Source: Raillietiella orientalis
Taxonomy: Eukaryota
Direction of reading: 5' to 3'
DNA: 64,000 nucleotides
Assembly (NCBI GenBank): GCA_036172245.1
Contig: JAYWIR010000005.1
Location: forward strand, 434,001-498,000
Below the pieces are notes generated by a model that did no database searches, was not told where the DNA came from, and was given only the letters and a program-made list of their open reading frames with translations. Position numbers and translations under genes: made by a program. This document shows positions 11,442-64,000 of this stretch, one piece after another. Every line of letters starts with the position of its first letter. The stretch's first letter is position 1.

Positions 11442-11559
11442 AATAAAAATGAAATGGCCCAAAGAAGCTACCGATCTCAGATGATGGAAGAGTAAGAGAG
11501 CAGAACCACATTTCCTCGGATGGATGCCACATGCCTGCTTCGCTATTACGCGCCTGACA

Positions 11560-12185
11560 ACCAGGTGGTGCGGGGCACCTGGCAACACGGGTTCAAATCC
11601 CGCCTGGGAAAGGACTGACGGAACGGGAGGTGCGTCATGGGCTTCGAGCCCCATCTCCTTCCCGCAAGATGTCCACGGGCTTCGGATACAGCACCAGCGA
11701 AGGCCGGAAACCGGATGGTCCCGTTGACTGGCCGGGATTGGATCTTTGGCCCTCCGTGGTGGTTCCAGGAACCAAGAAGTCGGTTCTCTTCTGGTTGTGT
11801 AAACGGGGCTGTCCCTTCCCTTGGAGATATTACGGTAATCTCGTATTACGGAGTTGGCGAATTGGTACCTCTCCAGAGTGTGAAGAAGTGCTCCTTTCCC
11901 TGCAGGAGAGCGAGCCATCCAGAGAACTGTGAAGCGTCCCTTAGGGGTTCTCTTCAAAGGAGTAACAAGGAGCGGTTCCCTTTGAACAATCAGGGTGGAG
12001 GGTTCCCCTCTTAAGAGTGAGACGAACGGACTCTTTCTCAGGAGCCTTCTTAGATTCATAGGGTGGTCCCTTCCCGGGATATCCCCTATCTTGAAGAGTT
12101 CGCACGCACCCTCAGGTGGCGTGGACAGTGTTAAAGAACCTCATGAACCCCTAGACAACTGTCTTGAGTACTTAGCGAACCAAAA
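11560..12185 (+). mobile_element. tRNA-derived SINE-like element, copy 1 (internally shortened, most diverged)
   Basis: B-box GGTTCAAATCC at 11590-11600. Shares blocks with 29262-30000 and 34782-35762 (gaagcgtccctt.ggggttctcttca; gattcataggg...cccctatc). Ends in GTACTTAGCGAACC followed by As. Confidence 0.75.
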
Positions 12186-15100
12186 GGAAGGAAAAAGCTG
12201 GAAGGGAAGCAGCGAAAACAGGAGAACCCTGAAGGATCTCCATCATCTGCTCTTTCGAATGTCCTCTCCTCGAAAATTGCACCAGCGAACCCAAAATTTC
12301 ACAAGCGGACATCTACCGTGGATTCGCGTTGCTCCGACCTCTTCGTGCGACAAAGGTGGCACGAAGAGTGGTGGATTCGAGTTTCCCGCGGAATCTTTCC
12401 AGGTTCGGCATGCGACCCCGTACAGCTGGGAAAACAAAATGCCGAGTAAATGGTTCTCCAATACAAAAAAGCCTAGAGATACTTTGGAATTCTCAGTTCT
12501 CTGGAGAGGCGTTGGCTGGCCTTTTCCAGCCTACAAAAGCTTGAAGAACAATGATCGCCCTTCCAGACGCTTCCTCTTAGACGGGGTTAGAGTATTTGCC
12601 GAGATCGGGGACGGCGCTTGCACGAGCACATTAAATGAGATGCAGAATCGTTCCATTCACTGTCATATAGTCAGTGCCAGCATTCATCATCATTCCCTTT
12701 ACAAAGCGCTGTTTTTTTCCCTCCCTTTCATCGGAGTGCCTTCATTCAAATTAATCGCAAAGCCTTGCGATGCTTGCCTCCGTGGAAACTCCTGATTTCA
12801 TACCTCGTGATGGTAGGTGACTTCTGTTCCCCAAATTCTCGGAAATTTTTTTTTTGTTACCAAACAGTAAAATCATGGGTCTCGGAACGCGAAGCAGGTA
12901 ATTCTTCTTTGCTGCCTGTGTAATGAGGGTGTGTACTACCAGGGTTGGTACATTGCCTGCACAGTCGCCACTAGCAACAACTGCCCGTGTACATGGAAGG
13001 TGCATGGAATGCTGAAAGTGATCCACTTTCCACAGAATTATAAGATACAACGCAATTTTTCTGTAAAGGTAATGGGAGTACAACATCCTTCAGCTCAACC
13101 CTTGAATCCCCCCAAAAAGATTTCAAGCCTCTGCATCGGGACTCTTCATTATTCAGTTTTGCTCCCACAAAATAATCTTTATTCACAAACAGTCATCTTC
13201 ATTTTGGACTGGATCACACTTTGCAATCAAAGTTATCCAGTTGGAGAAGAACTTATACTTGTCAGATCTGGCTTTTCCGGATTTTAAGCTGCAGAGCAGC
13301 GTTCTCAAGAATCATATGGCCAGAAATCCAAGAGGATTTCTGGACAAGAGGGTATCGTTAGATAGAAAGTAGTTTTGGTGAAGGAAAAACCAGCCACTAT
13401 TCCTCTAATGTTACAAGACAGACACACAAGTAACATGCAAGGGCAAGCACCACTGACATTTATGAAAACAAAATGCACAGCACTCTGAACAATCTGGGTA
13501 TGATGTTTTCACAGGCAAGTCTGCACATATCCATAATATTTTGCATTTCCTCGAAGACTTGCTCATATTCTAATGGTTTGTCTTCCCTGAACTTGTAGAT
13601 GACGTTCAGGCTATGCACTCCTTGAGCTAAAGTTACAAATGCAGAAGCTTATTTCCGGCAGAATTCTGAAACTATAACATTCGTAAGGCATTCTTGGTCC
13701 AACTGGCAGCATCCACAATTACCTCCATAGCACTTTGATTGGTGAATCCATGCCAAACCATTTACTTAGGAATCTCAGGATAAGTTGGATTGCAAATCTC
13801 AGGACACTGGGACAAGGCAGCATCTTTCTTCCCAGAAGAGCCTTTCAGCTTTTTTGTTTCTAAAGAAACGAGAAATTGATAAACCAATGCTATTAATTCT
13901 TAAGACTCTTATAGTGTAGGAGAGGCCCATACTCTCACATAAACAGCTGCAGATACTCTGCACAGAGTAAATACCCTTCACCTATCATGCATATCCCACA
14001 CAGTTCCTAGTTTCTACAACAAGATCCATTTGCAATATTAATGCTATGTCCATTTTTCAAGCACCTAGAATGCAGGAAGATGCTCTTTCGAGTCATCTGA
14101 AAATGTAAAATACTAAAGGAACAATCGTAATTGGCAATTGGATAAATACATAACAATGCCCAATTTCTTTTCCAATAGGCTTGTTCCATTTCCTTAGCAC
14201 AGATACCAAAAAGCACAGTTACTTCCTCAGAATTCAATGCCTTCCTTGAGTGATTTCTCAGATTCCCCTATTATCAACCTCCATATTACTCTTTTGATTC
14301 CTGCATTCCTTACATCATTTATTTGGTAATCCTCTGAACTCAGTGACATTCACTCCCATGATAACTACCAGGTAAAAAATCTCAGACTGCATGCTCCTCA
14401 CTAACTCTTGGGCAATTGATTCACCTGTTACAGCACTGCTACTGACATTTACATTTACATTCTGTGCCAACCAGCATACCTCTGATTAGAATACTTCCTA
14501 GACCTCAATCTACACTTGAAAAGGCATAGCTAATATATGCTTTGGATGCACCATCCCTAAATAGGACAACTGTAACTGAAATCACAAAATCGCTCACTGC
14601 ATCCCCAATGCATCTACTTTTCCCAAAAACCAATTTGCACTCATGGGTTTAGGGTATTCAGATGCTCAATAATGCCATCTGCACTCTTGTTAACTCAAAC
14701 ACATACGTTGTTTATTTTCCAACTAAGGTAATTATGTATTTCCGATTCTTTCCCAAATGCTAACATACTCAAAATTAAACTCCGATGGATATTATTCATC
14801 ACTCCAATGGACTTTCATCACATGTTAATAATATAATCATAATACTTTCCGAAAATTACACGAATTTCTTGGTAATGATCTACACTTTGCACCAAGTTTT
14901 TTTTCTTCTTCAGTAGCATTTTTGTTTGCTGCATAAATGTTCCCTGCTGAAATCATCAGTGTCGCATCAAAGTGTCCCATGCTGGTGATTCTTGGCCTGA
15001 TAGGCATTCTTAGCTATTCTGCTTCCTCAAAGGCAAATCACTGTGATGTGCTTAACCAATTTCCATTGGTCTGCATTAATAATAAAAATACCTTCAAATG

Positions 15101-15203
15101 GTAACAAAGGATTGAGAAATGTGCACATACAACAGAAGCCATGCACAAAAACAAAAAAAAAGACAAATGGACTTTCAGACTTGGAATAAAGTACTGCCCT
15201 TAC

Positions 15204-15682
15204 TCTTTGATGATGTGTGGGATTCTGCCTTCGAGAGAAGTTCCAATAAATCTGAAAACAGATCATTTTGAAATTGCAAACACAGACATGATGCAGTTTG
15301 TGATGACCTTGTCCCAAAATTGCTGCCATGCTGTCATCTTCAACATTCTCAGCTGGAAGAGCTTCAGCTTTGGTTTTAAAATTAACAATAACAGCATCGT
15401 TCTTGTGAGCTACTTCACCATTGCAGTGACTGATATTTCGCAGGTTCTCAATGAGAATACTCTGAGCCTTATTGAGCTGCCTCAAGTAACGTTTGTACCT
15501 TTCTTTGGCAGCATCCGCTATGGAAGAATGTGTAAACAAAACTTCAGCAGCGGCTGCCTTCATAAGAAATCAACTTACTCTGAATATACGGGAAGCAAGC
15601 ATGGATTGGCGAAGAGACAATGTTCATGTGCTCGACTCCATTACTTTTGGAACTAACGTTATTTTTATTTGGCATACCTTGA
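15204..15682 (-). CDS. Unidentified multi-exon gene; core exons 15682-15579, 15517-15308, 15251-15204, probably continuing toward ~13.5 kb
   Basis: Two GT-AG introns (61 and 56 nt) join in phase 1 to give ...FPYIQTDAAKERYKRYLRQLNKAQSILIENL...AAILGQDLLELLSKAESHTSSK. Further exon-like pieces lie near 13770-13860 and 13480-13630. No family recognised. Confidence 0.5.
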
Positions 15683-18530: not shown

Positions 18531-20099
18531 GACATACGAGTGAAGGAGAAACGCAATGAAAATCTCCTTGGGATATGTGGGTGTCTGCTAAATGCAGCGC
18601 GCAAGTCGTCTCATTTCAACGGAAGAGACAAAGAACTGCTTGGGACTGCAAAGCGGGTTTTGGATGCCCACACCCCAGTGATTCGTTCATCCCACCTCCT
18701 CATCCGCCCTAACCCCCCCCCCCCCACTCACTGCAGAACTCCGAGATCTTCAATTATTGGTCTCACCTTCTCCTGCCACGGGAAAAGGCATGTAAGTTTA
18801 TTGAAAACGATAAACGTCCCGGCGCAACCGGGAAACACTCATTTCCCATTGCCGAATCACTTGAAGAAGGGTGAGAACCGTTCTAATCATGCTTCAACAA
18901 ACGAGTCAGCTATTTCTTATTTGGAGATCATCCAGAGAAACCAAACACCCATGAGGAAGGAAAAGTTAGTCCCCACGGATGCAGAAATGCGCTGCATCCG
19001 TGGCGGCACGGGCAAACAAGAAGCAGACGACAATGGAAGACAAACAGCAAAAGAACTAACTTCCGTTTACTGTTTTCCAATCATGATGTCAACACGAACA
19101 TATCCCCAAGGGAACTGGTAAATCAAAGAAGTTCAAACAGCGGAAGTCGCGTGTGCGTATTCCGAATCCATGAGCGCCGTAAGCCAAAAAAAAAAAAGGT
19201 GAAGACAAAAAAAATAAGAATGAAGAACCGTGCATGGAGCTGCCAAGCACTGCACTCGTCTTGTGAGGAGCCAATGCGGAATGGTGATCAGAGCTGGCAG
19301 GGGTGCTCTTTTTTTCTTCGAAGCAGCTGGGTATGGTGGAGGATCTGCTCGACTGAGGATCCTGAGATCGTGAGAGAGCAAAAGAACGGAGAAGCCTCGT
19401 TCCCTGAAGCAGAGAGGTGGCGCAAGAGTCGCTCCGGCGGCGGAACGGAACTCTGAAGACTTTGTCGTTTCGTGCTGCACAGCTGCCAGACGTGGCTCCA
19501 GTTTCCTGTGAAATAACTCTTGAGCTGATTGCATCTTGGATGTGGAACTAAGATCGTCACAGGTGCCTTTCAGCGACCTTTGCGCTGCACAAAGGACAAG
19601 GCAGACACACCAGTGGGAGATGTGCCAGTGGGCTTAGTGCAGCTGTTGCAATGCCCCGTCTCTCGCGCAGCCCGTCGTCTGAAGTCAAAACTTGATATCT
19701 AAAAAAAAAAAAAAAATGGCGTGGCTTCTGCCTGTGACCTTGGGTTTGCCACCTGCGTTCGGAGCCTGCAGGGATTTGTTCAGGCAGATTCTTTTGCGCC
19801 CTGATCGAACCGGCTGCGAAATTCGTAGGTCAAATCTGCTCGGTGCTCTTCCTGAGCACCTGATGAGCAACGGCAGCATTCGGATGTCTCCGATGGAATG
19901 GTTTCCCTGCTCCTCGAGGATCCGTGCTTCAACCGCGCCCATGACCCAACAGAGAAAGTTGCCGAAAATACGGCTGGTGGCGTTCTCCGCATGTCGCCCC
20001 CTGCCCGCTGCAATCTCGCCTGCGCATGCGTGCGGGCGAGCGCGCCGCTTCCAACGCTTCCCACTGAGGGGGGACGACCCACTGAGGGCTTCCAACGCC

Positions 20100-20994
20100 C
20101 CCCAAATTCGGCTCAGGCCCGATGGGAGGGGGTAGGGATCTCAGCGAGGGGACGATGGGCGGGCGATTCCCACGCTCTTCGCTGGACATCGAAGGCCGGG
20201 GAGCATCTTTCCCCGTCTAAGCACAGCCTTCCGACAGCGGCGCTCTTGGTGGAGGCGCGCTCAGGGCCTCGCACCACGTGTGCGAAGCTTTGGAGCCGGA
20301 AGCCTACCGACCAACTCGCCCGAAGGACTTGTGTGGCTCCCCTTCGGGACGTCGGTCTAGGCCTGGAGCGAATGGAGTTGCAACTTCATTTCCGAACACT
20401 GGCCCTCATGGAAAAATTCTGGAGCACCACCTGGTGCCAACCTGTACGTCTCCTCGTCCGGCAAGCTACCAGCAGCGTGGGACTCGCGTCCTTACTTGCA
20501 CGCCCTCCACGCAGTCTCATCCACTGCGGACTGCACCGACTTTTTGAGCGTGGCCACCTGTTCGGCGAGTGGCCATGCTCACAAGGAAGAAACATGGGAT
20601 GGATCTCCTGCCGCCGCCTGCGAACGGTAGCGCCTGGTTGCAGGAAACCGTTTGCACGTGGGCGAGGAGCCAGGAGCCAAGTGCGGAACAGATGCGACGT
20701 TTCCTGGACGGTGCAACCACAACTGCACTCTCCGGGAGATCCGGTGACCCCGTTGAAAGATGCAGGAGTTCGAACCGCTGAAAGTGAAAGCGTATCCAGA
20801 GTCTGCTCTTCCAGAAATGGAAGGGACGACCTTTGAACACTCTTCGAAGAGTGCATGGGCAGGACTGACAACCTCCTCCCACCACCACCTCGAGGACTTT
20901 TACGCTGGGGCGAGCTACTGGGACTTCCGGTGGAAGATCTGCAGTGGCCCTCAGTGTTTATGAACACCTGTACGCCCCCTTTGCAGTGGATTGG
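20100..20994 (+). mobile_element. L1/Tx1-type LINE ORF2 C-terminal remnant
   Basis: RWEGVGISARGR...KLWSRKPTDQLARRTCVAPLRDVGLGL resembles the post-RT W...LS..GR and FxW...P...GGLGL motifs of L1/Tx1 ORF2. Confidence 0.75.
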
Positions 20995-21810
20995 CACCAA
21001 GTCATGCCAGGGCATTTATTTATTAAAAAAAAAAAAAACATACAGGTTAGTGGCAAAATGCGTGGTCCTGCCACGTCACATGTATACACGAAAAGGAACC
21101 TTCCGAGCGGCGGTTCAGGCCAGCGGGGTTCGCCTCGGCGACAGAGGGGGAGGGGGACAAACAAAAAGAAAAGTAAAACAAAAAAAAATGTATATACAAA
21201 AATTGGGAGGGTTCGGGGTTACAGGTTGTTCGAGGCCGTCCTCTGCATCTTTGTGAGGATGCCGGCAAGTTCCTGTTTTACGATCCCCAGATGAGGCGAT
21301 CTCGAATCTATCTTCATGAAGAGGACGAAAAATAAATGGCGTCACTGTCGTTGCGGCCTCTGGCGTTGTTGCTCCATGCCGCCACGGTCCCGCTGCATGG
21401 GCAGCAAAGTGCTGCTGGGGATGCGACCGACGACAGGACGTCGCGCAGGAAAAGGCGCTTCAGAACGTATCTGGGGTAGCCCTCGGGGATCCACAGGGAC
21501 GCGGCGAAACGTCCCCAAAGGGACCGGAGGGTAACACGGTCCACGAGCAGATGCGGGAGGGACTCTCTCTCGCCGCACATGCTGCAGTTGGGGGCTCTCA
21601 CTCCCCCAGGTCCTAGGGTGTCGACGGGCGTTACACGGGAGGACCTAGTGCAACAGCAGTGTCGCCGACTCCTGCCACTTTAGGGGGAGGGCGCCACTGT
21701 TTTAGCACGCTGGGGGCCCTTGTACCTCATTCGGAGGGATTTGTAGTAGCTCTCCCCAGTGTAACGGTCCTTTTGATGGGGCACTCGAAGTCGCGGCATT
21801 CGCTAGCTCC
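20995..21810 (-). mobile_element. L1/Tx1-type LINE 3' fragment with zf-RVT and 3' UTR
   Basis: Minus-strand NCSMCGERESLPHLLVD at about 21540-21590, then a T-rich 3' UTR and AATAAA near 21015-21024. Confidence 0.75.
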
Positions 21811-27310: not shown

Positions 27311-29261
27311 CGAACAGTCATTCGAGGGAGAGCTCTGGATGAGGGAAACAGAAGGAGGGATGATCTTCGCTTTTGCTCTTGCCTCTTTCCGCAGTTCACC
27401 GCCATCTTGCATTCTTTGGGAGTACGATTCCTGGGCTAAGGAGAAACCCGTCCGGCCACCGCCAGGAGATCTGGGAAGATCATTGATCCTCTGGAATAAG
27501 CCGACAAAGCTCGGTCTCTAACTCAGAGTTCACGGATAGCTCCGTGCCCTACATTCCCAACTGGAAGCAGCAGACACCAAATGTGAAACCTGATGACGCG
27601 CTTCTCATCATGCTTCATGCAATGCTCCAAGGAATTTCAGTTATGGTCAGTTTTAGAATAGGGATAGCAAGGCAGTTCCAGGCACAAATTGATCCTTGCA
27701 TCATACTGAGAATGAAAAAAAAAAAAAATTTGTCAGAAGTTCGATCATTTATTTCAGACACCTCTGTTGCATCGCTAACACATACTAGAAGTACCAAGGA
27801 AAAATAAAAACACTGAAAGGACTGCACCTTTTCATTTGCGTTTTATAACTTATGCTGAAGCACGATGCATTTCTCCGTGAAAATCCCTAAGATGAATCCC
27901 ATTATGGCATGAAAACTTTCCAGATTCTCTACTTATTTACACTGCATCTACGCGAGAGAATGAGATCCATTCATACGAAACGCTTGCCGCCTATCCCTGC
28001 AAGCTCAGTCTGTCAGCAGTACCTCTTCAAAGAACATTAGAGATTAAAAACAAAGCAGTTTAGAAAATAAACAGGAAAATTCCCGTTACGTGGCGATTTG
28101 TAATCATTAAGCCAGGATTGCACACGTAAATGGGGGAAATCGAAATTGCACATTAAGAGAATTAAGAGCCTATCCGCACTTCTCGGAGTGGATGGTCTGA
28201 TCCCTTGCGTGGTTTCCTTGTCTTTGATTTATCCCTCGGATGCACGCAAGATCTTTCGACGTACCGCCACTTTTTGTTCTCGATCTGGTTTGCAGCTGCA
28301 AGTCGGACTCTTGGTGGATGCTGAAACGCTCGTTAAAAGGCATTACAGACTGAATACTTCTCCATATCGGAAAATTATCCCGTCTCGAAATGTAAATCGT
28401 AATCCGAATGGCTATTGATTGACTGTTGAGATGACAAACGCTGCCCCGTGCTCAGTTGAACAAGATAACGTGAAATGAGAAGATCAGCACTGCTGGATGC
28501 ACTGCCTAGGCTAATAGGATTGCATGTGCCTCTGCTTGCTCTCCTTCTCGGGTAAACTTCTTCCTTCTGATGGTAAACTTATGTAAATTCACCCATGGGA
28601 TATACGGTCCTCAGATCTTGGATTCTGGAAACCGCTCTGGAAACGGAAATCCCATCGCTCAGGAAGTGCACATTGAGTTTATCTGGCATTTCTTCTGCAG
28701 AAGAAATGCAGATTAACGATAGATTCGTTGTGTTTACCGACTAAACACTGACATTTTAGACACAGACCAAGCTGGACTTGTGCTGATCTTGGAATTTGCG
28801 AGGTGTCTGCGATTGAATCATGTAAGACGCACTTGTGGTCATTGCTTACAACGTATCATACAACTTACAAAAGTATCCACTTATTTATCAGCAGCATCCC
28901 AGTATGAAAGCTCGTTGCTGTCAATAAACGAACATCAATGTGATCTTTGCACTTGTTATCTATGAACTCTAGTGAACTTCCTCTCATGGAAGTAGCTTTG
29001 GAGTGGTGGCTCCTGTATCCAATCTGGCCACAAAAATCGGAATGGGGGGACCCATTCGTTGCTTGCACTCGTGAATACACAGCCTTTTCGACAATTCAGT
29101 TTTGCATTGCGCCACTTTTGTACACAGCCTGATTGATAAGCTCTCCTGAATGCATAACAAAACGCGAAAGGTGAGCCGAGTCTTTTACATGAGTAAAATT
29201 TTACGGAAAAAGATAGATATACAGTCTTTACACTCGTAAAACTTTCTGCGTCGGAGGACGT

Positions 29262-30000
29262 GTCGTTACGGTGGTCTCCGCGCGTGGCACCACGCGTCGT
29301 GGGTTCGAATACTCCGGAAGGAATCGAAGCAGTGAGTGGTGGGTCCCGAGTTCATCCCACAAGATGACCTGGTTGGCCTGCATTCATCCGGGTATGGCAC
29401 TGGTAGCTGTTAAAACCGGATGCCCCCGATGAGGGCTGGGACAAATGGGAGTCGACCTCCGGGTCCTTCCAGGAATCACGGAGTGGGAGCTCCCCTCCGG
29501 TTGTGAAGGAGCGGACTCCCCATTCTGGGGGGACCCTCCGCGTCGTACTGATGGAGTAGGTGTGTTGCCACCACCTCTCCAGAGAGTGCAGAGAAGCGAG
29601 TCGATCCCTTCAGAGAAGCTGCGTCCTTCTGAATTTCGGAAGCGTCCCTTCCGGGTTCTCTTCAGAGGAGTAAAACAGGAGCGGATCCTTTGAGGGGGAT
29701 CCCTCCGGAGAAGAAATTCCAAGATCGGATGCTTTCCGAGTTCCCTTCAGAGAAGAAGGAATAAGAGCGGATTCCCCCAAAGGTCCTCCGGAGAGAATAA
29801 GGAAGGAGGTTCCCTTCTAGATTTTCCTTCGGAGACAAACAGGGTGGAGGTGATTTCCATTTCCGGGGATCCCTCCCCAGGTGTGAGAGAAAAGGATACT
29901 CCGAGTCCTTCTTGGATTCATAGGGCGGACCCCTCCAGGCGTACCCCCTATCTTAAAAAATTACCCACCTTCGGGTGGCGTGGAACCGTGTCGAAGAACT
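29262..30000 (+). mobile_element. tRNA-derived SINE-like element, copy 2 (lacks the 3' tail)
   Basis: gtcgt...gtggt head, cgcgtg-gcac-cacgcg stem, B-box GGTTCGAATAC at 29302-29312, and a hairpin array collinear with copy 3. Confidence 0.8.
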
Positions 30001-30074
30001 GCGAAGACAGAAAAGAAGGATTTCCATCATTTTCTTCTTCTTTACAGCACTCGATGAAATCAATATTTACACAA

Positions 30075-30245
30075 ATCTATCTATATAAATATATATTTAC
30101 ACACATGCACACAAATCTATCTATCTATCTATCTATCTATCCATCCATCCATCCATCTATCCATCTATCTACCTACCTACCTATCTATATCTATCTATCT
30201 ATCCATCTATCTACCTACCTATCTATATCTATCTATCTATCTATA
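30075..30245. repeat. Compound (ATCT/ATCC/ACCT)n microsatellite
   Basis: Direct reading: atctatctatctatccatccatcc...acctacct. Confidence 0.9.
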
Positions 30246-30624
30246 CACGTACACATATGCATTGCCTTGACTGAAATCTGAATCTTCTTTTAAACTTTAT
30301 TTCCTTGAAAAAGTCGTGATATACCTCCGTCCATTTCCTCTAGGTTTTACCTGTCATTTGTCTTTTATTTTAAGCATTTCTTATGTGGGCTGTGTGAATG
30401 CGGCAACCCATGTGTGCCAACGGGCGTTTCGCCCCGCGTGTCGAGATGGGAGGCAGGCGATGCACCAGGAAACGTGGCTGCTCTCGGTTACCCAGAGCCG
30501 ATATCACGGTGACGCATGCAGGATGGTGGCGTAGTGACCCTCTGTTTCCCGTTATCAGTGATGGGGGAATATGATGATGTAAAATCGAGGAATGTGTGGG
30601 GCACCAAACGTAGGTTCAGATAGC

Positions 30625-32088
30625 ATGGAACCCGTGCCCTCCAGCAGTCAATCAGAGAGCAGCTCCTCGGGAGTAAGCATGCCAATCTTCTCTTTTCCCA
30701 AAGAGTCATTGATAAAGGCAGCATGCCTGATTGTTTTGACTTTGATGACTTCCACAACGATTTTGACTGTGCGCTATTCACGGAAAACAGCAGAAAACAA
30801 CTATTTAACAACCACAGCAGTCCTGTGTACAGAAATTCTTAAATTGATTCTTGCCTTTATACTTTTATTTCTTAACCAAGGTAAAGATGGAAACTTCTTG
30901 GGTTATGAATCCTTTTTCTTTTATGTGTGTGCTTTTCGTTTTTCGCCTACCATGTCGCTGAAAGCCTTAAAGTTAGCTTTCAATTCAGCTGCACAGCATG
31001 AAATTGTTCTCCAATCCATACCACTGCAGTTTTCAAGATACTTTCTCAATCACCGAATTTGTATAGATTTCAATCACTTTATTAGTAACTTATTTCAATG
31101 GACACTATTAGTAACTGTCCATTATGCCTGTACCTCTTTTTCCTTCAGAGTACAGCGTGAAGAAAGCAAGCAAAATTTTCAAGACTGAAATAATTGATAA
31201 ACCATTGGAGACTGCAAAGCTGCTTATACCAAGCAGCTTATATACCATACAAAATAACTTACTTTATGTTGCTTTGACCAATTTGGATGCTGCTGTTTAT
31301 CAGGTAAAATTTGTATGTCAGTACTATAATCATCTGTTATACAGATTACCTATCAACTTAAAATTCTAACCACAGCTGTGGTTTCTTTGCTGCTATTGAA
31401 TAAGCAACTCCATTGTCATCAGTGGATTGCAATGTGTTTACTTATGGCAGGAGTCAGTCTTGTGCAGCTTTCAGTGCAAACAGAAACATCTTCCCATAGT
31501 TTTCAGCAAAACTATTCCCTTGGATTAACTTGTGTGCTATTGGCATCATTATCAAGTGCATTTGCTGGAGTGTATTTTGAAAGACTAGTCAAAATGGGTA
31601 CTGCAGAATCCTCAAATTTAGCAGTCCGTAATCTGCAGCTTGGCAAGTGAAAAAACAAAGTTGAAGGTAGATTTTTGATTCCAGGTCTCAGTGCTACCAT
31701 GTTCTCAGCTCTAGGTCTGTTGTTCTACGAATGGGATGCTGTTCAAAGTAACCAAGTTTTTCAGGGCTTTAGTGATATAACATGGGTTGTCATTTTGTTA
31801 CAAGCTGTAGGTGGATTAGTGGTGGCTGCAACCATCAAGTATGCAGACAATATTTTGAAGGGGTTTGCAACCTCAATCTCCATTATTCTGTCAAGTCTTT
31901 GCTCTTATTTTCTTCTGAGGGATTTGGAGATTTCTGGAAATTTTTTGTTTGGAGCATCTGTTGTTCTCTTTGCTTCCATGCTGTACTCCTGTAACCCCTT
32001 CTCAGCTTCCAAATCTAGTCATGTGCTAGTTGTAAGTGCGCCTGTTCAAGATTCATCACAAGCAGGGAAACGTTCAAAGCCAGAATAG
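30625..32088 (+). CDS. SLC35A3: UDP-N-acetylglucosamine/UDP-galactose transporter (SLC35A family); exons 30625-30880, 31149-31303, 31345-31642, 31685-32088
   Basis: Family motifs [61 protein letters not shown] and GGLVVAATIKYADNILKGFATSISIILS. Introns are 268, 41 and 42 nt. A3 versus A2 assignment is by recalled motif similarity. Confidence 0.9.
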
Positions 32089-34781
32089 ATTTATTTGTTG
32101 AGCAGTTGATTCAATGTAAGCTGCATTTTAGGAAGGTTTGTATTATCTTGAAAGCAAAATTCAGTATTTAGTACAACATTACGTCTGCTTCCTTAAAACA
32201 GAGGCATTTGTTGGCTTTAGTTGGCAATCAAACTTTAAGAAAGAAATCTTGTAGAAGTATCTGATACTAATATGTAATAAAAGGAAGTGTGGTAGTTAGT
32301 AGTAAGCTGAAATCATCATTTCATGTTTTCTTTTGCACTCATTAAAAGACATATCACCAACTTGTTCTTTGGCCGAGTTAATCCTCTACGAGGTATCCTT
32401 TTTCCGTCGATGAAGAGATTTTCCCATGCATTTTGTATCCTTATAATTAGAAAACAGGACCAAACAGGGAAAACGTGGAAAGTCATTCGGGTTTTCAGAG
32501 TTAACATTGAGATTCTGGTTCTGTTGCTCCATGGGGCTGCAATCGTATATATTTTTATTTTTAACCAAATCTCACGTTCCTGGAGGTTTCCAAGGTGTTC
32601 TGGATTAATCGGAGGATTCCAGGCAGCTTAGTTTGTTGCCGCAGTTGGTGCTATCTGCCAGGTGCACCAGTGCTCGCAAATCTGGAGAATCTCTGTGCAT
32701 AGCGATACACCCGTTTTTGCGGGCTACGACCAGGTATGCCACACTTGGGAACCGAGCGGCTGCGGAAGATCTTCGCTCCTGCGGAGCAGCGATGCAACAA
32801 GTGGGTCATGAACGAAACCGATTAAAGAAGTGGAAGCTGGAGGAGGCTTATTAGTTTCCCTTTCTCAAGTACCACGTCTCAGCGATCCTGGATTTTTGAA
32901 GGGAAAGGAAATCGACAGGGCGACCGGAGGGTCAGCCAAGCTGCTGCAACAAGAACGAGCGCCTTCCGAGGAGGTTTCGAAAGAAGTTTTCGAAATGTGC
33001 TTTTCAGGCTTTTCCATGCGTGCTAAGGGGCGCACGTACAACCGGGAACCACTGTGAAGCCTCCAAGCGTGATGTTCGATAAATTCATGGAAATTATTTG
33101 GGAAGGATGCAGATGGTGTGCTAGGGGAAGATTTGATATGAGGGGAGGGAGGAATCGCTCGACCTCCTGTCCAGCAGCCGGTCCAACTGTGGCGTCCGCA
33201 GCCCGAATGGTGGTACCTTCTGATGGGTCCGCGATACACACGTGCTTGCGGTTAGAATGGGGCCCATCCTATGCACGGCGCACCTCTTGCAAGCCAAGAG
33301 CGGTCGCGGTTCCGCTTCTGAAGTTTTGCGATTTTGAAATGCCGACATGCTTTGAGATGCGCCAGGGTTTTCGAGATTTGTCTGAGCCTTATCCATCCTC
33401 ACGGTGTGCTCCGTAAATGGGTGAGGGAGGGAAACACTGGCTTGGTTTGATTGTCACGCTGCGGCGGCTGATCAGATCCCTACAGGGCTGGTTCCAGAGG
33501 GACAGAAGCGTGAGGGGCATGCTGAAGTTGCCGGTGGCGCTCAGCAAGGAGTGATGCACACTCATGGGATAAAAAAGAAAAAAAAAAAAAAAACCTTGCT
33601 TCTCGTTTAGTACATCGTAAAAGTAGATGGAGTTTTCGCATCGTCAGCCAAGGTTAGCACGGCGAACAAATCCGCTCTTCAGGAAAAATTGCCGGGTTGC
33701 CTTCTCTTCATAGCGAATCACCGCCGAAAGAGAACGAGCCCAGGACAATCTGGAATGTTCACATCTAGAATTCGTTTGTTAATCTGAAAAATTGCTGAGC
33801 AGAAAAGGCGTAGGACCGTCGCAGACCTTTGGCTGGTAACGTCCTTTCTGTGCTGGCTGTCCCACGATGAGGGAACTTCTGCCCCGCTCTAAACAGCGAA
33901 TTGAGTGGAGGCGGCGACTTGCAGCATTGGTAAGTTTGGACGCCTCCCTTCACAGGCAAAATTGGCTTTATTTCGTGAGTGGAATTTTTCCTTCTCGTGC
34001 TCACAACTGCAAAAGTGCATCATCCGTGTGGCGGGACGGATGAACTAAGCTTCATTCATGAGCACGCTAAGCTTTGTCCCTCTTGGATGTGTGGCGGTGG
34101 TTGGCTATGCGAATGTAAGCACGGTGATCCGGCAATCTCTCGTCATTGATTTGGAAACAAGAACTTAGAAGCCTAAAGACTCATGAGCGGACCCTAAGGA
34201 AAGCACAAGCACGTGCCCACGACGTGCTGGTGCAATTCCATACTTCAGTTTCCGTCCGCGGTGTTTACGTACAACACGAGAGCCCGGCTGTATCGCTGAC
34301 AAACATGCACACTTTGGTAGTTGTCTCTGGGTAGCTGCTCTCTCTCCTGAGAAGTCCCAGGGCTTATCTCGGGCTTTCTTCTTCTGAAGAAAATTTTTCA
34401 TGGATTGGTTGTAAAGCTGATGTTAACTCGTGTGCTCCATTAATAACGGAAGTGCCATTCAGAGCTGCTCGGCAAGTCTGAATGGCACTTCCGTCATTAA
34501 CATCGATAGATCGTAAAGAGGACGGGAGCCATGCAGGAATGTCCCGCAGAGGGCGTCTGGGATCGGCTCGATTTCGTCCGATGACGTGAAGTGTCAACAG
34601 AATCTCGCTTCCACATTCCTTTTGTTTAGTCTTTCTTTTTTTTCCTTTTTACTTTGTGTTTCGCGTCGCAATCACTTCTTCCTCCTTGTCATGCTTTTCT
34701 CGATCTCTTGGATTTGCTACACAAAAATTATCCGTGGATGCCGCATCCCTTGCTGACTTTTGGATTCACTCTCCTCCAGCT

Positions 34782-35762
34782 CCTCCTTTCTTCTTGCCCG
34801 CGTCGTAGGCTTTGTGGTTAAGGCTTCCGCGCGTGGCACCATGCGTCGCGGGATCGAATACTTCGGCAGATAACTGACGCCACTGCGTCGTTTGGGTTCC
34901 GAGTTTCTCCTGCAACGGCGCCGGTTGGCCGAGACATTCGGGCGTGGCCCCGGCGGTGGATAAAGCCGGAGGCCTCCCGATGAAGGCCGGAACAATGGGA
35001 GTCGACCTTCGGGTCCTCCCAGGAATCAAGGAGTGGGGAGTTCCCCCTCCTGTCGTGCAACGGAGAGTGGACCCCCCCCATCACCGGGGGACCGCCTCCG
35101 GTTTCAAGATGGAGCAGGAGCCCTCACGGGCACCTCTCCAGTTGTTCAAAGGAGCGGACCCCCCCTGTTGCGAGGGGGACCCTCCGAGTCGTCGCACTCT
35201 TCACAGAGTGTAGAAGGAAGCAAGCGAGAGCGATTCCCTGTGGGAAACTGCAGCGCCCCTTCTGAGTTTCCGAAGCGTCCCTTCGGGGTTCTCTTCAGAG
35301 GAGTGAGCAGGAGCGGTTCCCTTGCGAATTCCCTCCGGAGAAGAAATTCCTACAAGCGGATCCTTTCCGGGTTTCCTTCGGAGAAGTTGAAATGGAGAGG
35401 ACCACCCCCCTAATGGGGGGTGTCCCTCCGGAGAGAATGAGGAAGGAGATTCCCTTCGCGGTTCCCCTTCGGAGACAACCAAGGTGGGAGGTGCGATCCC
35501 CCTTGTCCGGGGAGGATCCCTCCCCAAGCGTGAGAGGAACGGACTCCGAGCCCTTCCTGGATTCATAGGGCGGACCCCATCCCGGGTGTCCCCTATCCTG
35601 AAGAATTACACTGAAGAATTACACGCCCCCCTGCGGGGGGAGTGTAAGGAGTCCTTGCCGCGGGTGGAGAGGCGTGGAAACTAAACAGCGTGTTTAAAGA
35701 GCCACGTGCACCGCGAGGCACGTGACCGGCTCTGAGGTACTTAGCGAACCAAAAAAAAGAAA
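34782..35762 (+). mobile_element. tRNA-derived SINE-like element, copy 3 (apparently full length, about 980 bp, A-tail, 14-bp TSD)
   Basis: A-box-like GTGGTTAAGG (34814), B-box-like GGATCGAATAC (34851), 3' GTACTTAGCGAACC(A)8, flanked by the direct repeat ACTCTCCTCCAGCT at 34768-34781 and 35763-35776. Confidence 0.88.
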
Positions 35763-38700
35763 ACTCTCCTCCAGCTTCCGTGCTCATCTCGTGCATCAGT
35801 GCCAACAATTTTCTTGTTGCACAGTTTCATCAGCATGCCTTGGTTCGAGAAGCTAGCCATGTTTTGGATGCACGGTAAATCCTTGAAAGCAAGGACTCTA
35901 CAGGAGGCTCTCTGCATCACTTCCATTTACCTTCTTTAGTGCGTATCAACGAGCTCGCGACGCGCTTCCGGGTCGGGCTCTCACGTTTGCATGCTATCCT
36001 TAAAGATCATTGATTTTCCTTTTCCGCTTGACGCAGGGATACCCACCGCCAAGAAGTCCACTCTTGAGACAGCAGACATCGGAGACAACCCTCCTGCAGA
36101 GGATCTGATTGCGCGAAGATGGCCTTCCACCTGCTGTTATTCCCTGGACACCTTTCGCTTCCGTTGCGATGTCAGCTGAGGCACTCATCCAACTCTGGAG
36201 CACGACGCAGTGCTTTTCGAGAGTTGCGTCTTCACGCACGTCTTATGACGTCTCTTTCTTTCTTTTTTTTATAATGGAAGAATAAAATTTATTAGTCATT
36301 CGTCAATTGCATGAACGCTTTGAATTGCTGTTACCGAAATCCGCCTGTTTTCTTCAAATTTCAAAAGTTTTGTCTGGGTAAGCAATCCGTCAGGCTTTTC
36401 CGGTTTGGTTTAGTGCCATCAAAAACGATGGAGTCATATCTTTTCGTCATCAAGAGCAACTCTACAAGCAGTACACCTCAGCAGAATCCTCATTCCCCAG
36501 AGGTGTATTGCTCTTAGAGTTGACTGTATTCTTTTCAGACACTTGATTAACGTGATGCCTTCCAGATTAATAACGAGCATTCTGGAAGCATTGCTCCCAC
36601 TCTGTCAGGGTCAGTCCCTCAAATGTAAAACCAGCATCACATTGGTGAGCAGCAGATCTTCCTTTGCCGAGCGCCCTTCTTCCATGACCTTCATGTATCC
36701 ACTCAATCCTAACTGATGTAGTCTTTTTTCCAAATCAAGGATAGTACCAAGCTTCTTCCTCTACAGCCCCTTCTTCGGAAATTAGACGTCTCTTAGAAAA
36801 GGAAGGATTACACTGATGTTCCGTTCCTCGGAAGTCTCGATTTCTTTCTCCTTCCTCTTTCTTTTTCGAAGATGTGGAGGAAAGTGGGCTGGTACGAGAA
36901 AGGACCGCTGTCCACTCAGTCTGGTGAACGGATTTCAAGAAGAAAACGCTGCATCAGAGGGTGGAATCGTACGAAATTCCTTCTGAGCGAAACGAGCGGA
37001 AAGCCGAGAGAGAGAGAAAGAGAGAGAGAAAAAAAAGTAAAACCTACGCACACAAGCAGAGTTCTCTAGAGCTGAAGAAAAAAGAATGTAAGGTGGGCAG
37101 GAGGCTAGATCTTCCGTGCTTGGAAGAGGCGGATCTGAAGAGGACGGAGATACCGAACTTCTGATCGATCAGCGAAGACGGGTGGAGCTGACCGAAGCCA
37201 ACACGAAGCTTTCGGAATTCTCGAGTGGGCGAAACAAGGGGTGTTCGGTGTTTGAAGGTGCACTTCCGATAGTTGCGAAACGAAAGGCGCGAATCTCGCA
37301 GAACTTCAGCTCCTCGTTGCGATGCGATCTCAGCAGGAAGCGCGCGGAACCTTGAATTTTCGTGCCCCGGGCCGAGGTCCTCCTTCGAACTAGCAAAGTG
37401 CTGAGGCCTCAACACCCACACAGCTGTTAAGATCGGAGTGCCGTTCGAAGGAGGCAGCTGGTTTCGAAACCCCGTTGAGTGTTCAGCCCAGGTCCCCTCG
37501 TCCCACAACCTCCACAGCAACCCTTTCTTCCCTATTCCGGTCCAGTCCGATCCAAAGACATGCGGCTGATGACATCGTCCAGCCCGGGGTGGGTTCGACC
37601 TGGGAGCAGCTGGCTCGTGGAGCGGGATGGAGTGGCCGGGGGTGCCAACTCCGGTTTCAACATCGCGCAGGCAGGGCAGGAAGGTTCGGCAGCCTCGTGG
37701 GGACGCGACGAGGTTCTGTGGATGCTGACGGTCGCTCAAGGACTCGCAGATTGGAAGAAGTCGCCGTGGAGATACGTGGGCGATTGAAGGCCGGGGGGGG
37801 GGGGGGGGCAGAAAAAGTGCCATCATGGCGGCAATCTGGTTCACGATCCCGAACGATCGAAATCCCGAATCTCGAAAGTTTACAAGAAATAAAATATAGA
37901 TGTCTGTTACGTAGATTGATATGCAAATTTATTTCAACATACACATTTATAAATATGAATAATAGTGGGTTTTGATAAATGCATAGACTAAAGATTTAAA
38001 AAAATAAACGTGTTTATATATATATATAGATAGATAGATGGATAGATAGATATTTATGTATATAATAAATATATATTAGGTGAATGTATAAATATCGAAG
38101 TGTAAACCTGTATGGATGCTGACGACTTCAGCGAATTACGGTGCCCCCGGGGTGGATTCCCCTCTGCGGTCCGATTTGGTGCCGCAAAAGGGCAAAGGCC
38201 AGCTAACGATGTTGGATGCTTCTTGCCCATTTGAACGTGTTGAGGCTTTCGGAGTGCCAGGGAGGAGGAGGAGGAAAGGGGGGGGGAGAAATACCGGGAC
38301 ATTGCCCAGCAAATTTCACAGACGGGGCCGCAGACCAAGGTGCTCGCCCCTTTGTAGCCGCATCTCTGGATGGAAGCCGGGATCCTCTCAGCGATGCAGT
38401 TCCTGTACTCTCAGAAGAGACAATCTGATAGTTGCCTCGTGTCTGATGCAGCTGCGACATCTGTCGGACGGATCGACTTTGCCGTCCCACCAGACGACGC
38501 TGCCAGCCTGAGGCAGCGTGGCCAAGCTCGTTAAGGACCAAGACAAGTTTTAATCGGAAGGTCCCGGCCACACGATCCGCTCGATCGTCGTATCAGGAAA
38601 TGAGAAGGCAATGATTGCAAGATGGCTCGAATCCATCCTTTTCGCTTTTGTTTGCATTCCCTGTTCTGCCCTTTGGGTGAAATCTGGTCAGAGAAAAGAT

Positions 38701-39572: not shown

Positions 39573-42500
39573 CTAGCTCGGATTCCTCCGGGCGGTCACC
39601 TGCTCGAGGCTGCCCTCCGCGGCGGCGACCGCGTCTTCCACGGAGAAAAACACCATCTGGTCCGCGAAATGGAAGAAGAATTCGTTCCTCTCCAGGAAGA
39701 AATAAACAGGTCCTTGCGGGGCGACCACCCAAATCAGGAACCTTCTGCTCTGAAACTCCTTCACGAATTGAAGCAGTTTGTCCACAGCCATCATGTCGGC
39801 GAAAGTCAGCATCGACAAGTCGAGCACCAAGTTCCAAGAGGACTGCTCCACGCCGTCTGGCAGGCAGTGACCCTCCTGCAAGTCAACGGTGGAGGAGAGG
39901 GAGGGTCATCTTTACCGTACCTTGTGAGGGGGAGAGAGCTTTTCTTCTTCGCAGGGAGGAAGCAAGCTGTTGAACTTCTTTTTCAGGCCCAGGATGTTCG
40001 TAAAGGTCAGCCCCCCTTGCACGCGGATGACGGTCGTGCGACGCAGGGGGAGCAGCCCCTCGTAGAGCGCTTCGTCGACCAGCAGGCGGTTTGGGGAGGG
40101 GAGCACCCCAAGGCGACAGATGTAGACCTTCTGGGATCTGTAGAGCAGCAGGATCAAGGAGAACACGACGCTGATCCCCAGCCCGATGTCGATGTCCAGC
40201 AGGACCACAGAGAAGAAGGTGACGAGCCACACGGACGCGTCTAGACGGGATCGCGACAGAGCGCGCACGACCTCGCGGTACTGCAGGAACATGCCCCTGA
40301 GAGCTACCGTGATGATGGACGCCAGAACACAGGTGGGCAAGTCACTAAAGAATGGTCCGATCTTCAGCAGGACGAGCAGAAGAAAGCCACAGGAGATGAT
40401 GCTGGCCAGCTGCGTGCGGCCGCCCAGAGTCCTCTGGACGACGCTCCTGGACAGCGACGCGCTCACGGGAGCGCAGGAGGTGAAGGACCCCACCAAGTTG
40501 CTGACGCCGACGGCCAGCCACTCCTGGTTCGCGTTTATTTTGTACCCGTCTTTCTTGGCCAGGATCTTGGCCATGGACAGGCAGATGGTGTAAGACACCA
40601 CCGCGACGGTGAGGCTGTCCAGAACCAGTTTGGGAAACAGTTCCACCGGGGGCATCGAGAACAACGGCAACCTGGCGGCGGAGGTCCCTTCCTTGAGGCG
40701 GACGGCGGCCGCCCCATCTCCTTACCCGGTGGGGATGTCGCCGACCGTGAGCACCCCGAAGCGCCTATTCAGCTGCGAGTACCGCATCACCAGGGTGCCC
40801 GTGATGATGGCGACCAGCTCGATGGGGAACGAGAAGCGGGTGCGCTTCTGGAGAGCAGGCTGGAATTCGGGAAGGGGGGAAGGGAGACGAGACTTCGCAT
40901 CTTCCGCCGACGGAAGAGGTCACCAACCTTGACGATCTTCTCGAACAGCATAAGGCAGGTGATGGTGATGGCGGATATAAGGACGGAGGCGAGGTTGCTC
41001 TCGCCGAGGTGGCTGACGATGTCGACCAGCATCTGCAAAGGTCCCGCCGGGTTTGCCATTCGGTTCCTCTCCCGAGGAATCGATTCGGTTGCGCAGGAGG
41101 GCGCGACCCCTCTCCGCCCCTCAGACTCACGTAGATCACTTTGGTGATGCCAAAGTGCTTGCCGACGGGGACCCCGAACAGGTGCTTCAGCTGCGAGACG
41201 AGCACGTGTACCGCGGCCCCCGTCGTCATGCCGCTGACGAGGATGTCAGTCAGCAGGACGCTGACGACCCCCAGCCGCGCGATAGCCAGGCCGCATTGCC
41301 AGAGCCCGCACAGCAGCGACATGGCCGTAGCCACCTCGACGGGAGTGAAGGTTGCGTTGCCGCCGGCCGCCAACGCCTCCAGGTCGGAGTGCTGTTCCAC
41401 GGCCTTGCCCGTCATCATGCACACGACGGAGAACGTGCCTGGAGGAAGGGCGGGCAAGGTCGAGAGCCGGTGCGCTCATGGGCGGGGACTCACCGATTGA
41501 TATGTGCCTCGAGGTACCGAGCAGGGAATACGCAATCACAGGAAAGAAGGCCATGTAGATGCCCGTGATGGGCGGCACAAGCGCCAGCATTGCGTAACCG
41601 AGGCCTGCCCGGAGCGTCGATCAGGCGGGTCCAATCCCCGTTCCGCAGCTTACCTTGAGGGATCTGCATGACGCTCACGGTGAATCCCGCAGATAGGTCG
41701 CCCCAGGCGCTCTCCTTCCACCTGTAGCGCCTCAGCCAGCACGCGGCAGGGAGGAGAGAAGACAGCAAGCGCGCGAAACGGCTTGCAGAGCAGCAGCCGC
41801 CGCCATCCCGGAGCTTCCTCTTGAACTTGGTCAGCAACGCTGGGGACACGCGGGAGAGAGGAGTCCTGAAGAGCAGAGGCGATTCGCCGCCGCATACGTA
41901 AGGGACCGCGCGTCCGACCGATTCCAGGGGAGATGGAAACGTGTGAAGCGCTCTTCCACTTGTTGCAAATGCTTTCTTCCCCACCTGCCCACCCCCTTCT
42001 CCTCCTCTCTTCGAGTGAGAGGAGCGTTGCCCGCGGAAGAGAAATACTCCCCGGGGGAAGGAGGCATCGTTCGCTTTCGCTGCTGCGCGGAGCGGGCGAG
42101 GGGGGAGGTAGAAATGGAGGCAGCTATAGAGGAACACACGATCATTCCGAGACCACGGTGCGGGCCCATGATTCGTGGCCATCATCTCAGCGGCAGTCGA
42201 ATGCCGGGAGCCTCCGCATGGAGCGCTGCCGCCGCAAGCGAGTGAGCGAGTCTGACGTTGGTACCGCAAGGGCCGAGGAGTCGTCGGAAGCTTCCTTGCT
42301 CTCTTGATGGATGCCTCTCCCATCCCATCATCCATAGCGGTTTCTTTGCTATTTTTTTTTTTTTTTTTTTTTTACCTTCTCTCTCTTTACTCACTACACA
42401 CCGCGGACTCTTTCCTCTATTCCAACACTTGAGGAGCTGAGACTTCTTCTTCTGCCTCCTTCTTCTTCAGGCATAAGACCTATGCGAGGGAGCGTAATTC

Positions 42501-63817: not shown

Positions 63818-64000
63818 GTGAGTTTTATTTTCATATTTTGTGTTGCTTGAAAATCATTATAAAAAATCAACATCGTGTAGATTTCTTTTTCATGATTCAA
63901 GTTGTACTAAATTTAGAATTATTAGTTGTTTTTTGTACATAATAATTTTCTGTCTTGATTTTACTCATTTCATGTTATTGCTTAATTGAAAACAATTTGC

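Follow-up and report, generated by a model that had tools for sequence, protein, structure and literature searches.

A 64-kb stretch of the Raillietiella orientalis contig JAYWIR010000005.1 (positions 434,001 to 498,000 of the forward strand; hereafter the window) carries on its + strand, among the gene exons and other features collected in Table 1, an insert of 981 nt and 60% G+C at 34782-35762. This insert, designated copy 1 (c1), is 969 nt long without its A-rich tail and is flanked by a perfect (14/14) direct repeat; it entered the site whole, duplicated 14 bp of the target and carries an A-rich 3' end. Searches with blastn and nhmmer revealed two relatives in the window, copies 2 and 3 (c2 and c3). 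An earlier description made from the letters of the DNA, here called the sequence-only reading, had portrayed the insert as a long tRNA-headed retroelement whose body is an array of bulged, UNCG-capped RNA hairpins. Here, we describe a computational analysis of this element. We consider it likely that c1 is a young copy of a non-autonomous, non-coding retroposon family of the short interspersed element (SINE) type whose body is composed of hairpin units.

All three copies are on the + strand and are recovered by nhmmer with E values of 1e-15 to 1e-95; c1 and c2 are 73% identical, c2 and c3 64%, and c1 and c3 60%. The older copies possess A/G-rich tails, and no convincing target-site duplication was found for c2 or c3; the only candidate, an 8-mer at c2, was judged unconvincing as it lies about 25 nt past the tail. 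Because a clean target-site duplication is found only at c1, c1 appears young and c2 and c3 old, and c1 was probably mobile in recent time. The youngest copy is also the longest, the lengths being ~665, ~770 and 981 nt for c3, c2 and c1, respectively. The copies differ internally: c1 contains an extra segment of ~87 nt (35062-35150, in place of one c2 unit) and a larger 3' hairpin, its strong unit at 35394-35429 has decayed in c2, and c3 is without most of the 35300-35480 unit run. Of X1, a public run of DNA contigs sharing words with the region, 120 contigs lie on the element but not a single one on the unique sequence to either side; this number is not a copy count. Their likeness is at least 99% in 6 cases, 95-99% in 22, 90-95% in 32 and below 90% in 60, and 13 joints skip 52-175 nt within the element body. 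The spread of likeness and the body-skipping joints therefore indicate that the family is multi-copy, of mixed age and variable in the number of its internal units. The c1 family is dispersed and non-coding, and its members have a common 5' end, a conserved 3' core and a variable array of related units.

The mode of insertion was assessed against other classes of mobile DNA. A coding element was rejected, as no Pfam family was found in the open reading frames (ORFs) inside c1 (n = 3, at least 110 amino acids) or c2 (n = 3); in addition, many of the insertions and deletions that distinguish c1, c2 and c3 are not multiples of three. A DNA transposon or miniature inverted-repeat transposable element was rejected as well, since terminal inverted repeats are absent and the A-rich tail and long target-site duplication point to retroposition. 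The sole inverted terminal likeness in c1 lies between the A-rich tail and the 5' end, which is rich in pyrimidines: its first bases, CCTCCTTTCTTCTT (34782-34795), can pair with the tail (35751-35762) when the whole element is folded, giving a panhandle that is probably incidental. The proposal of the sequence-only reading that c1 is a SINE-type retroposon mobilised by target-primed reverse transcription is thus supported by the target-site duplication, the A-rich tail, the lack of coding capacity, the three dispersed copies whose 5' ends match and the conserved tail core. The purine-rich linkers, the terminal hairpin (35698-35733), the tail core (35734-35750), the A-rich tail and the exact 14-bp duplication that it listed are all present as described.

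Table 1. Features of the 64-kb window, with coordinates in the window; dG, predicted folding free energy.
Feature	Position	Strand	Remarks
Left target-site duplication ACTCTCCTCCAGCT	34768..34781	+	exact 14-nt direct repeat of 35763-35776
Element copy c1	34782..35762	+	bounded by target-site duplication; full-length
tRNA-like 5' head	34787..34874	+	cloverleaf with relaxed ARAGORN (-ps80) only
A-box-like motif TAGGCTTTGTGG	34806-34817	+	in c1 head
Head hairpin CGCGTGG/CCATGCG	34830-34845	+	in c1 head
B-box-like motif GGATCGAATAC	34851-34861	+	in c1 head
Hairpin unit TGGGAG-tc-GACC-TTCG-GGTC-CTCCCA	34996..35021	+	c(UUCG)g loop; c2 loop TCCG
Hairpin unit GGAG-t-GGGG-agtt-CCCC-CTCC	35030..35050	+	dG -13.1
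Hairpin units 35062-35099, 35111-35139, 35151-35185	35062..35185	+	dG -21.6, -16.7 and -19.7
Unit GAAG-cgt-CCC-TTCG-GGG-ttct-CTTC	35272..35297	+	competing alternative hairpin CCGAAG-cgtcc-CTTCGG (35270-35286)
Run of ~43-nt units	35300..35523	+	units end C(C/T)TC, then GGAGA and purine-rich linker
Members of the run	35300-35336, 35355-35379, 35394-35429, 35430-35470, 35487-35523	+	dG -28.7 (35394-35429) and -19.7 (35487-35523)
Hairpin GGATTCATAGGGCGGACCCC...GGGTGTCCCCTATCC	35559..35598	+	kept in c1, c2 and c3
13-nt tandem duplication CTGAAGAATTACA x2	35598..35623	+	c1-specific
Hairpin CCCCCC-TGC(G)-GGGGGG	35625..35643	+	c(UGCG)g reading; orthologues CCACC-TTCG-GGTGG (c2), CACC-CTCA-GGTG (c3)
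3'-terminal stem-loop	35698..35733	+	dG -18
Tail core GAGGTACTTAGCGAACC	35734-35750	+	after terminal stem-loop
A-rich tail AAAAAAAAGAAA	35751-35762	+	c1 3' end
Right target-site duplication ACTCTCCTCCAGCT	35763..35776	+	exact 14-nt direct repeat of 34768-34781
Element copy c2	29238..30010	+	older; fewer units than c1
Element copy c3	11530..12195	+	most diverged; most of unit run absent; tail core as c1
Exact B box of c3	11590-11600	+	in c3 head
RNA polymerase I A49-like factor exon	1475-2305		
Nucleotide-sugar transporter exon(s)	30583-32085		
SulP sulfate permease exon(s)	39915-41620	-	

The 3' end of c1 consists of the terminal stem-loop followed by TACTTAGCGAACC(A)n. A 17-mer of the tail core, TACTTAGCGAACCAAAA, is identical in c1 and c3 even though these copies share only 60% identity overall, and the final ~20 nt upstream of the A-rich tail show much stronger conservation than the remainder of the element. 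Such conservation is expected if the reverse transcriptase of a partner long interspersed element (LINE) recognises this 3' end. No LINE such as the sequence-only reading proposed to look for was found in the window, where neither a reverse transcriptase nor an endonuclease domain was detected in 152 of the 205 ORFs of at least 110 amino acids, which weighs against the SINE interpretation. In metagenome contigs the tail 17-mer occurs at 49 loci, none of which is related beyond this seed.

Judged by its motifs, the 5' region of c1 is plausibly a degenerate tRNA-like head of the type transcribed by RNA polymerase III (Pol III). In all three copies a T-arm/B-box-like motif lies equally far from the 5' end. 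We scored this motif against the B-box consensus GGTTCRANNCC; at this homologous place c3 has no mismatch, c2 has one and c1 has two, and most related X1 contigs (n = 5) have T at 34853, giving GGTTCGAATAC and bringing the c1 box to one mismatch. The hairpin before the B box has arms that differ among c1, c2 and c3 yet pair in each (CGCGTGG/CCATGCG, CGCGTGG/CCACGCG and CCAGGTG/CACCTGG, respectively). The head of c3 has sub-threshold Rfam likeness to mascRNA (13.3 bits) and to the tmRNA T-arm (8.2 bits). Both c1 and c2 open with CTTTCT...GCGTCG right after the 5' boundary, their ends agreeing within a few bases; this agreement favours a defined RNA start over random 5' truncation. Runs of four T residues, T4, are absent from the 969 nt of c1 (shuffle mean 3.1, P = 0.017), the first lying 47 nt downstream.

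Several results count against a Pol III head. With default settings ARAGORN did not detect a tRNA in the c1 head, and in the Rfam tRNA clan this head has no match at E <= 10, even with 106 nt as the search space; a genuine tRNA gene was accordingly rejected, as neither program recognises a cloverleaf there. At relaxed thresholds (-ps80/-ps85) ARAGORN reports in the c1 head a cloverleaf resembling class II, whose extra arm is long, and another at the homologous place in c2; this proves little, as -ps80 yields 56 calls in the 64 kb. The head contains no exact match to the A-box pattern, and box motifs with at most one mismatch are not enriched in the window (28, as compared with 34.8 in shuffles). 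The lack of T4 is not strand-specific, because A4 runs are also absent from c1 (P = 0.06), and c2 has one T4 run. Thus, of the tRNA head claimed by the sequence-only reading, box-like motifs and a relaxed-threshold cloverleaf stand, whereas recognition by the standard tRNA detectors does not.

The failure of these detectors would fit an element that is not a Pol III SINE but a non-autonomous derivative of a LINE, transcribed by RNA polymerase II or by read-through and stemming either from the 3' untranslated region of the LINE or from its tail joined to a captured 5' piece, with fortuitous tRNA-like motifs. Box-like motifs are common by chance, and such a derivative would likewise show a conserved tail core, as in stringent LINE/SINE pairs. 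A length of ~1 kb, beyond the range of SINEs catalogued in SINEBase (PMC3531059), also fits this alternative. We nevertheless regard it as unlikely: the shared start point of c1 and c2, the motif and pairing hairpin at a homologous place in three copies, the weak tRNA-like matches of the c3 head, and the absence from c1 of T4 runs and of any coding remnant all speak against it. Transcription driven by the internal tRNA-like region, probably by Pol III, seems to us slightly more likely than not.

The body of c1 consists of repeated, hairpin-forming units. The four hairpins that the sequence-only reading offered as examples are present at 34996-35021, 35030-35050, 35272-35297 and 35394-35429. 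Families of repeats were recognised, among them three 37-nt copies (35065, 35152 and 35395; 62-73% alike) and four 23-nt copies (35279, 35319, 35362 and 35453; 74-78% alike), with spacings of 40, 43, 87 and 91 nt in the c1 body. The related units at 35062 and 35151, ~87 nt apart, correspond to a single unit in c2. When 18 units of the two copies c1 and c2 are aligned with MAFFT, the alignment is gappy and gives the consensus GGAGnGGnCC...GGGTTCCCTCC. Individual units have changed between copies: a lower-stem G-C pair of the 34996-35021 unit becomes G-U in c2, and the base pair just outside the 35030-35050 unit is A-U in c1 and C-G in c2. The inner 32 nt of the hairpin at 35559-35598 have a dG of -15.2, -12.4 and -13.9 in c1, c2 and c3, respectively.

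We defined a design unit as G[GA]AG paired to CT[CT]C in a single hairpin of 18-44 nt with dG <= -8. By this definition c1 has 9 units, compared with 1.7 +/- 1.1 in 60 dinucleotide shuffles (maximum 5), and c2 has 7, compared with 1.45; under a stricter unit grammar the counts were 3 vs 0.27 and 5 vs 0.22 in shuffles. The most diverged copy, c3, has one design unit vs 0.72 in its shuffles, a lack of enrichment that counts against the hairpin-unit reading. Because the units are palindromes, the counts are nearly equal on the opposite strand. Of the 11-12 common-design stem-loops reported by the sequence-only reading, nine are thus recovered objectively, or about 11 when the TTCG units at 34998 and 35272 are included, although the number of hairpins as such barely exceeds that of shuffles. 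Its 5' bulge is real: a single base is unpaired right after GGAG in 7 of 9 units of c1, and the same holds for 5 of 7 in c2. This bulge marks the common descent of the units, and the shared hairpin design arises because the units were duplicated from a common ancestor. The linkers between units are rich in purines when read on the + strand, and on that strand alone. The junction CTCC|GGAG is itself palindromic, and neighbouring CTCCGGAG / CTTCGGAG junctions can pair, enclosing a linker and a unit; the real fold, if one exists, need not match the parse of the sequence-only reading.

The stability of the element was compared with that of dinucleotide shuffles. The summed energy of local hairpins (counted at dG <= -9 and a span of at most 45) is -234 kcal/mol in the c1 body vs -163 +/- 17 in shuffles (z ~ -4.2) and -225 vs -165 +/- 17 in c2 (z ~ -3.5), both beyond all 100 shuffles; in c3 it is no different (-144 vs -132 +/- 14). 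When stability is regressed on G+C over the 64 kb, the four most negative residuals include those of the c1 and c2 windows. These energies argue against the view that pairing is a by-product of composition and of palindrome duplication at the DNA level, without selection on RNA structure, as do the nine design units of c1. That view has points in its favour, which equally weaken the case for a selected hairpin body. Whole-element folding gives equal z scores on the two strands, -5.33 (+) and -5.46 (-), with 20 shuffles each, and the local hairpins of the c1 body number 13 vs 10.5 +/- 1.3, only ~2 standard deviations above shuffles. In addition, G+C-rich parts of this genome are generally hairpin-prone: the window as a whole contains 165 local hairpins with dG <= -18, and the 19.8-21 kb stretch scores as high as the element. 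Composition therefore accounts for much of the hairpin count, but not for the stability or the shared design. The suggestion that pairing might be explained entirely by composition in shuffled controls is answered in the same way: summed stability and design units exceed the shuffles, whereas hairpin number stays near them.

Loops of the c(UNCG)g type bear on whether the + strand reading matters. Three occur in c1, GACC-TTCG-GGTC (35004), CCC-TTCG-GGG (35279) and CCCCC-TGCG-GGGGG (35627), whereas the shuffle mean is 0.24 and none of 1000 shuffles reaches three; c2 has two (P = 0.012) and c3 none. On the - strand, TNCG matches come solely from the CTCCGGAG junction palindrome, and an enrichment specific to the + strand is a further point against a mere by-product. 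Two orthologous UNCG loops of c1 and c2 vary only at N (TTCG/TCCG and TGCG/TTCG), a small hint that the + strand reading matters. Most unit loops are of other kinds, including AGTT, TCAC, TAAT and GTTGCG, and for this reason the label 'UNCG-capped' over-generalises; the caps are significantly enriched in c1 but are not the general design. Moreover, the TTCG loop at 35279 is TTCC in c2, where, together with a change 14 nt upstream, it keeps CCGAAG/CTTCGG paired as CGGAAG/CTTCCG. Because this compensatory change (C-G to G-C) supports the alternative hairpin, the register of the 35272-35297 unit is ambiguous.

Covariation was scored on the three copies, hairpins being defined on one copy alone and tested in another. 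Among positions at which both partners changed between c1 and c2, a standard pair was kept in 12/14 cases when the c2 structure was used and 9/14 when the c1 structure was used. Slid controls, in which the 3' partner was moved by 1-3 columns, gave standard pairs in 17/50 and 26/70 cases, respectively, and random pairs of changed stem columns in 35-37%. In an independent alignment with the c2 structure (137 pairs), there were 7 doubly changed, kept pairs vs 0-1 in six slid controls, an excess that again speaks against a simple by-product. Other results weigh on the opposite side. Single changes keep the pair in only 21/51 and 25/58 cases, 27 of the 137 c2-derived pairs are broken in c1, and hairpins defined on c3 show no compensatory excess (5/18 and 2/14). 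Stems diverge about as fast as non-stem positions (0.25 vs 0.29, P = 0.28; 0.23 vs 0.30, P = 0.03), as they would if the pairing were unselected. The method also calls for caution: the two directions of the c1/c2 comparison count largely identical events, the unslid register has an advantage when the structure comes from a sequence that is itself being compared, and slight misalignment within an array of look-alike hairpins can mimic compensation. Of the covariation that the sequence-only reading proposed to look for, a modest excess of compensatory changes is present between c1 and c2, set against broken pairs in c1 and no excess in c3. These observations are suggestive, not strong, evidence that inserted copies decay neutrally while the source-gene lineages of c1 and c2 kept many stems paired. 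Pairing that arose without selection on RNA structure is an explanation we take seriously, though we lean away from it.

A further interpretation holds that selection has shaped the array into a multivalent RNA scaffold or a sponge for proteins, in which the bulged GGAG...CTCC hairpins serve as binding sites and act through avidity. The asymmetric unit design with its 1-nt 5' bulge, the + strand linkers, the + strand enrichment of c(UNCG)g with loops varying only at N, and the compensatory changes between c1 and c2 would all be consistent with such a role. The binding function itself, however, is pure inference, and unit duplication already accounts for the shared design. The stability of the fold is strand-symmetric, several units have competing registers (CCGAAG/CTTCGG; neighbouring CTCCGGAG junctions that pair), UNCG loops number only three, and pairs are lost from the genomic copies about as fast as expected under neutrality. 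Because the most diverged copy, c3, is without the design, the design is not needed for retroposition. We therefore consider a selected scaffold very improbable.

The favoured SINE-type reading suggests the following course of events. An RNA transcribed from the internal promoter would be recognised by the reverse transcriptase of a partner LINE through the 3' stem-loop and tail core and copied into a nicked target by target-primed reverse transcription. In the body, an imperfect-palindrome unit of ~40 nt would have been duplicated and have diverged into at least two unit types, giving a quasi-oligomer. The ancestral unit would have had the layout GGAG, one unpaired base, a G/C-rich stem, a short loop, CTCC and a purine-rich linker. 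In the source genes part of the pairing seems to have been retained, most plausibly because an RNA that is compact and stable survives better and is a better template; copies would decay neutrally once inserted. It is also conceivable, if improbable, that source genes make a discrete Pol III RNA of ~1 kb, that its + strand hairpins are selected, as the compensatory changes and the UNCG loops varying at N suggest, and that the array grows (~665 to 770 to 981 nt) because a larger number of units confers an advantage. Extra units might then help through multivalent binding of host or LINE proteins or through protection from decay. If true, no described SINE RNA would be longer or more regular in structure, and a Pol III transcript with a selected array of ~10 similar hairpins would merit biochemical study as a natural multivalent RNA.

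Other observations concern the window at large. The three family copies per 64 kb each lie within ~3 kb of a gene exon. For the A49-like exon, relatives were not found in a collection of 5.8 billion proteins. A+T-rich blocks (30-37% G+C) occupy 14000-16000 and 60000-64000, the rest of the window having 45-66% G+C. In composition and gene spacing the window gives a tentative impression of a coccidian such as Sarcocystis; if that protist lineage were the host, the conceivable Pol III hairpin RNA would also represent its first SINE. After G+C correction the most hairpin-rich stretch is 19800-21000 (residual -81), which is as extreme as the element. It includes a tRNA-Trp call by ARAGORN at default settings (20057-20130) that is without Rfam gathering-level support and without a B-box-like motif, and it could be another structured repeat or merely G+C-rich sequence. 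Beyond their tails, by ~20-40 nt, c2 (30015-30030) and c3 (12231-12246) share a 16-nt stretch that is identical at 15 of 16 positions; with a blastn E of 0.3 the similarity was judged unconvincing, and it may be due to chance or to a preference for certain targets, or old subfamilies may have had a longer 3' end. Directly after c2, at 30060-30200, is a compound microsatellite in which (TCTA)n passes into (CCAT)n-like repeats.

Searches for a described relative were made at several levels. The Rfam search recommended by the sequence-only reading gave no gathering-level match in the whole window, and on the element itself only chance-level matches (E > 2). A degenerate 18-mer from the body had 13 chance matches to prokaryotic sequence in genome contigs, of which 4 align, over only the 18-22 nt seed, and no match in viral contigs. 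Among the papers listed in literature searches on SINEs, non-LTR elements, repeats and coccidian genomes, none describes such an element in its title or abstract, a negative of little weight. For the coccidian lineage, relevant to novelty only if the likeness noted above is right, a survey of repeats in Apicomplexa looked for candidate tRNA-derived SINEs (PMC9141347), and the main text of the S. neurona genome paper does not contain the word 'SINE' (PMC4337577). Should the density of three copies per 64 kb be representative, the family would rank among the major forces that shape this genome, might still be active and would be useful as an insertion marker.

Compared with known systems, the element belongs to an established type, from which it departs modestly at most. 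In stringent-type LINE/SINE pairs, such as UnaL2/UnaSINE1 of the eel, both partners share a 3' stem-loop and tail; by analogy, the terminal stem-loop of c1, its short conserved core and its short A-rich repeat tail may play a corresponding part. SVA, a hominid composite of Alu-like and retroviral parts with an internal variable number of tandem repeats, is thought to be transcribed by RNA polymerase II and has no tRNA-like head. Like SVA, the element is long and non-autonomous, and differences in an internal tandem array make its copies vary in length; unlike SVA, to which it has no homology, it has a plausibly tRNA-like head.

With tRNA-derived SINEs, as SINEBase describes them, the element shares a non-coding and dispersed nature, a 5' region with box-like motifs, a body, an A-rich tail, a target-site duplication and copies that differ by internal deletions and duplications. 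SINEBase defines a SINE as a short non-autonomous retroposon, of less than 700 bp in one sentence and less than 1 kb in the working criteria, and composed of a Pol III-derived head (tRNA, 7SL or 5S RNA), a body and a simple-repeat tail, in interspersed rather than tandem copies (PMC3531059). Its further criteria are a copy number of 100 or more and a head that shares 60% or more identity with a tRNA across 60 nt or more, and the consensus lengths of its 175 families are 75-662 nt (PMC3531059). The element is non-autonomous, tailed, dispersed and shorter than 1 kb in all three copies, and it has a target-site duplication at c1. However, c1 and c2 exceed both 700 bp and the catalogued range of family lengths, which counts against a SINE assignment, and with 969 nt before the tail and a head that tRNA detectors do not recognise, the element differs from typical tRNA-derived SINEs. 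It would extend the known size range of SINE-type elements.

The closest architectural relative is CHRS, a likeness that concerns described architecture and not homology. CHRS is a quasi-oligomer in which a degenerate motif of ~20 nt is repeated more than 10 times, its variants differing in repeat number (PMC3531059). The element likewise appears to be built from a degenerate short unit repeated ~10 times, with variants that differ in repeat number. In contrast to those of CHRS, its units have roughly double the length and, as imperfect palindromes, would fold into bulged hairpins; they belong to two or more types, between which purine-rich linkers are interspersed. The element appears to show a SINE body growing by the amplification of a hairpin unit.

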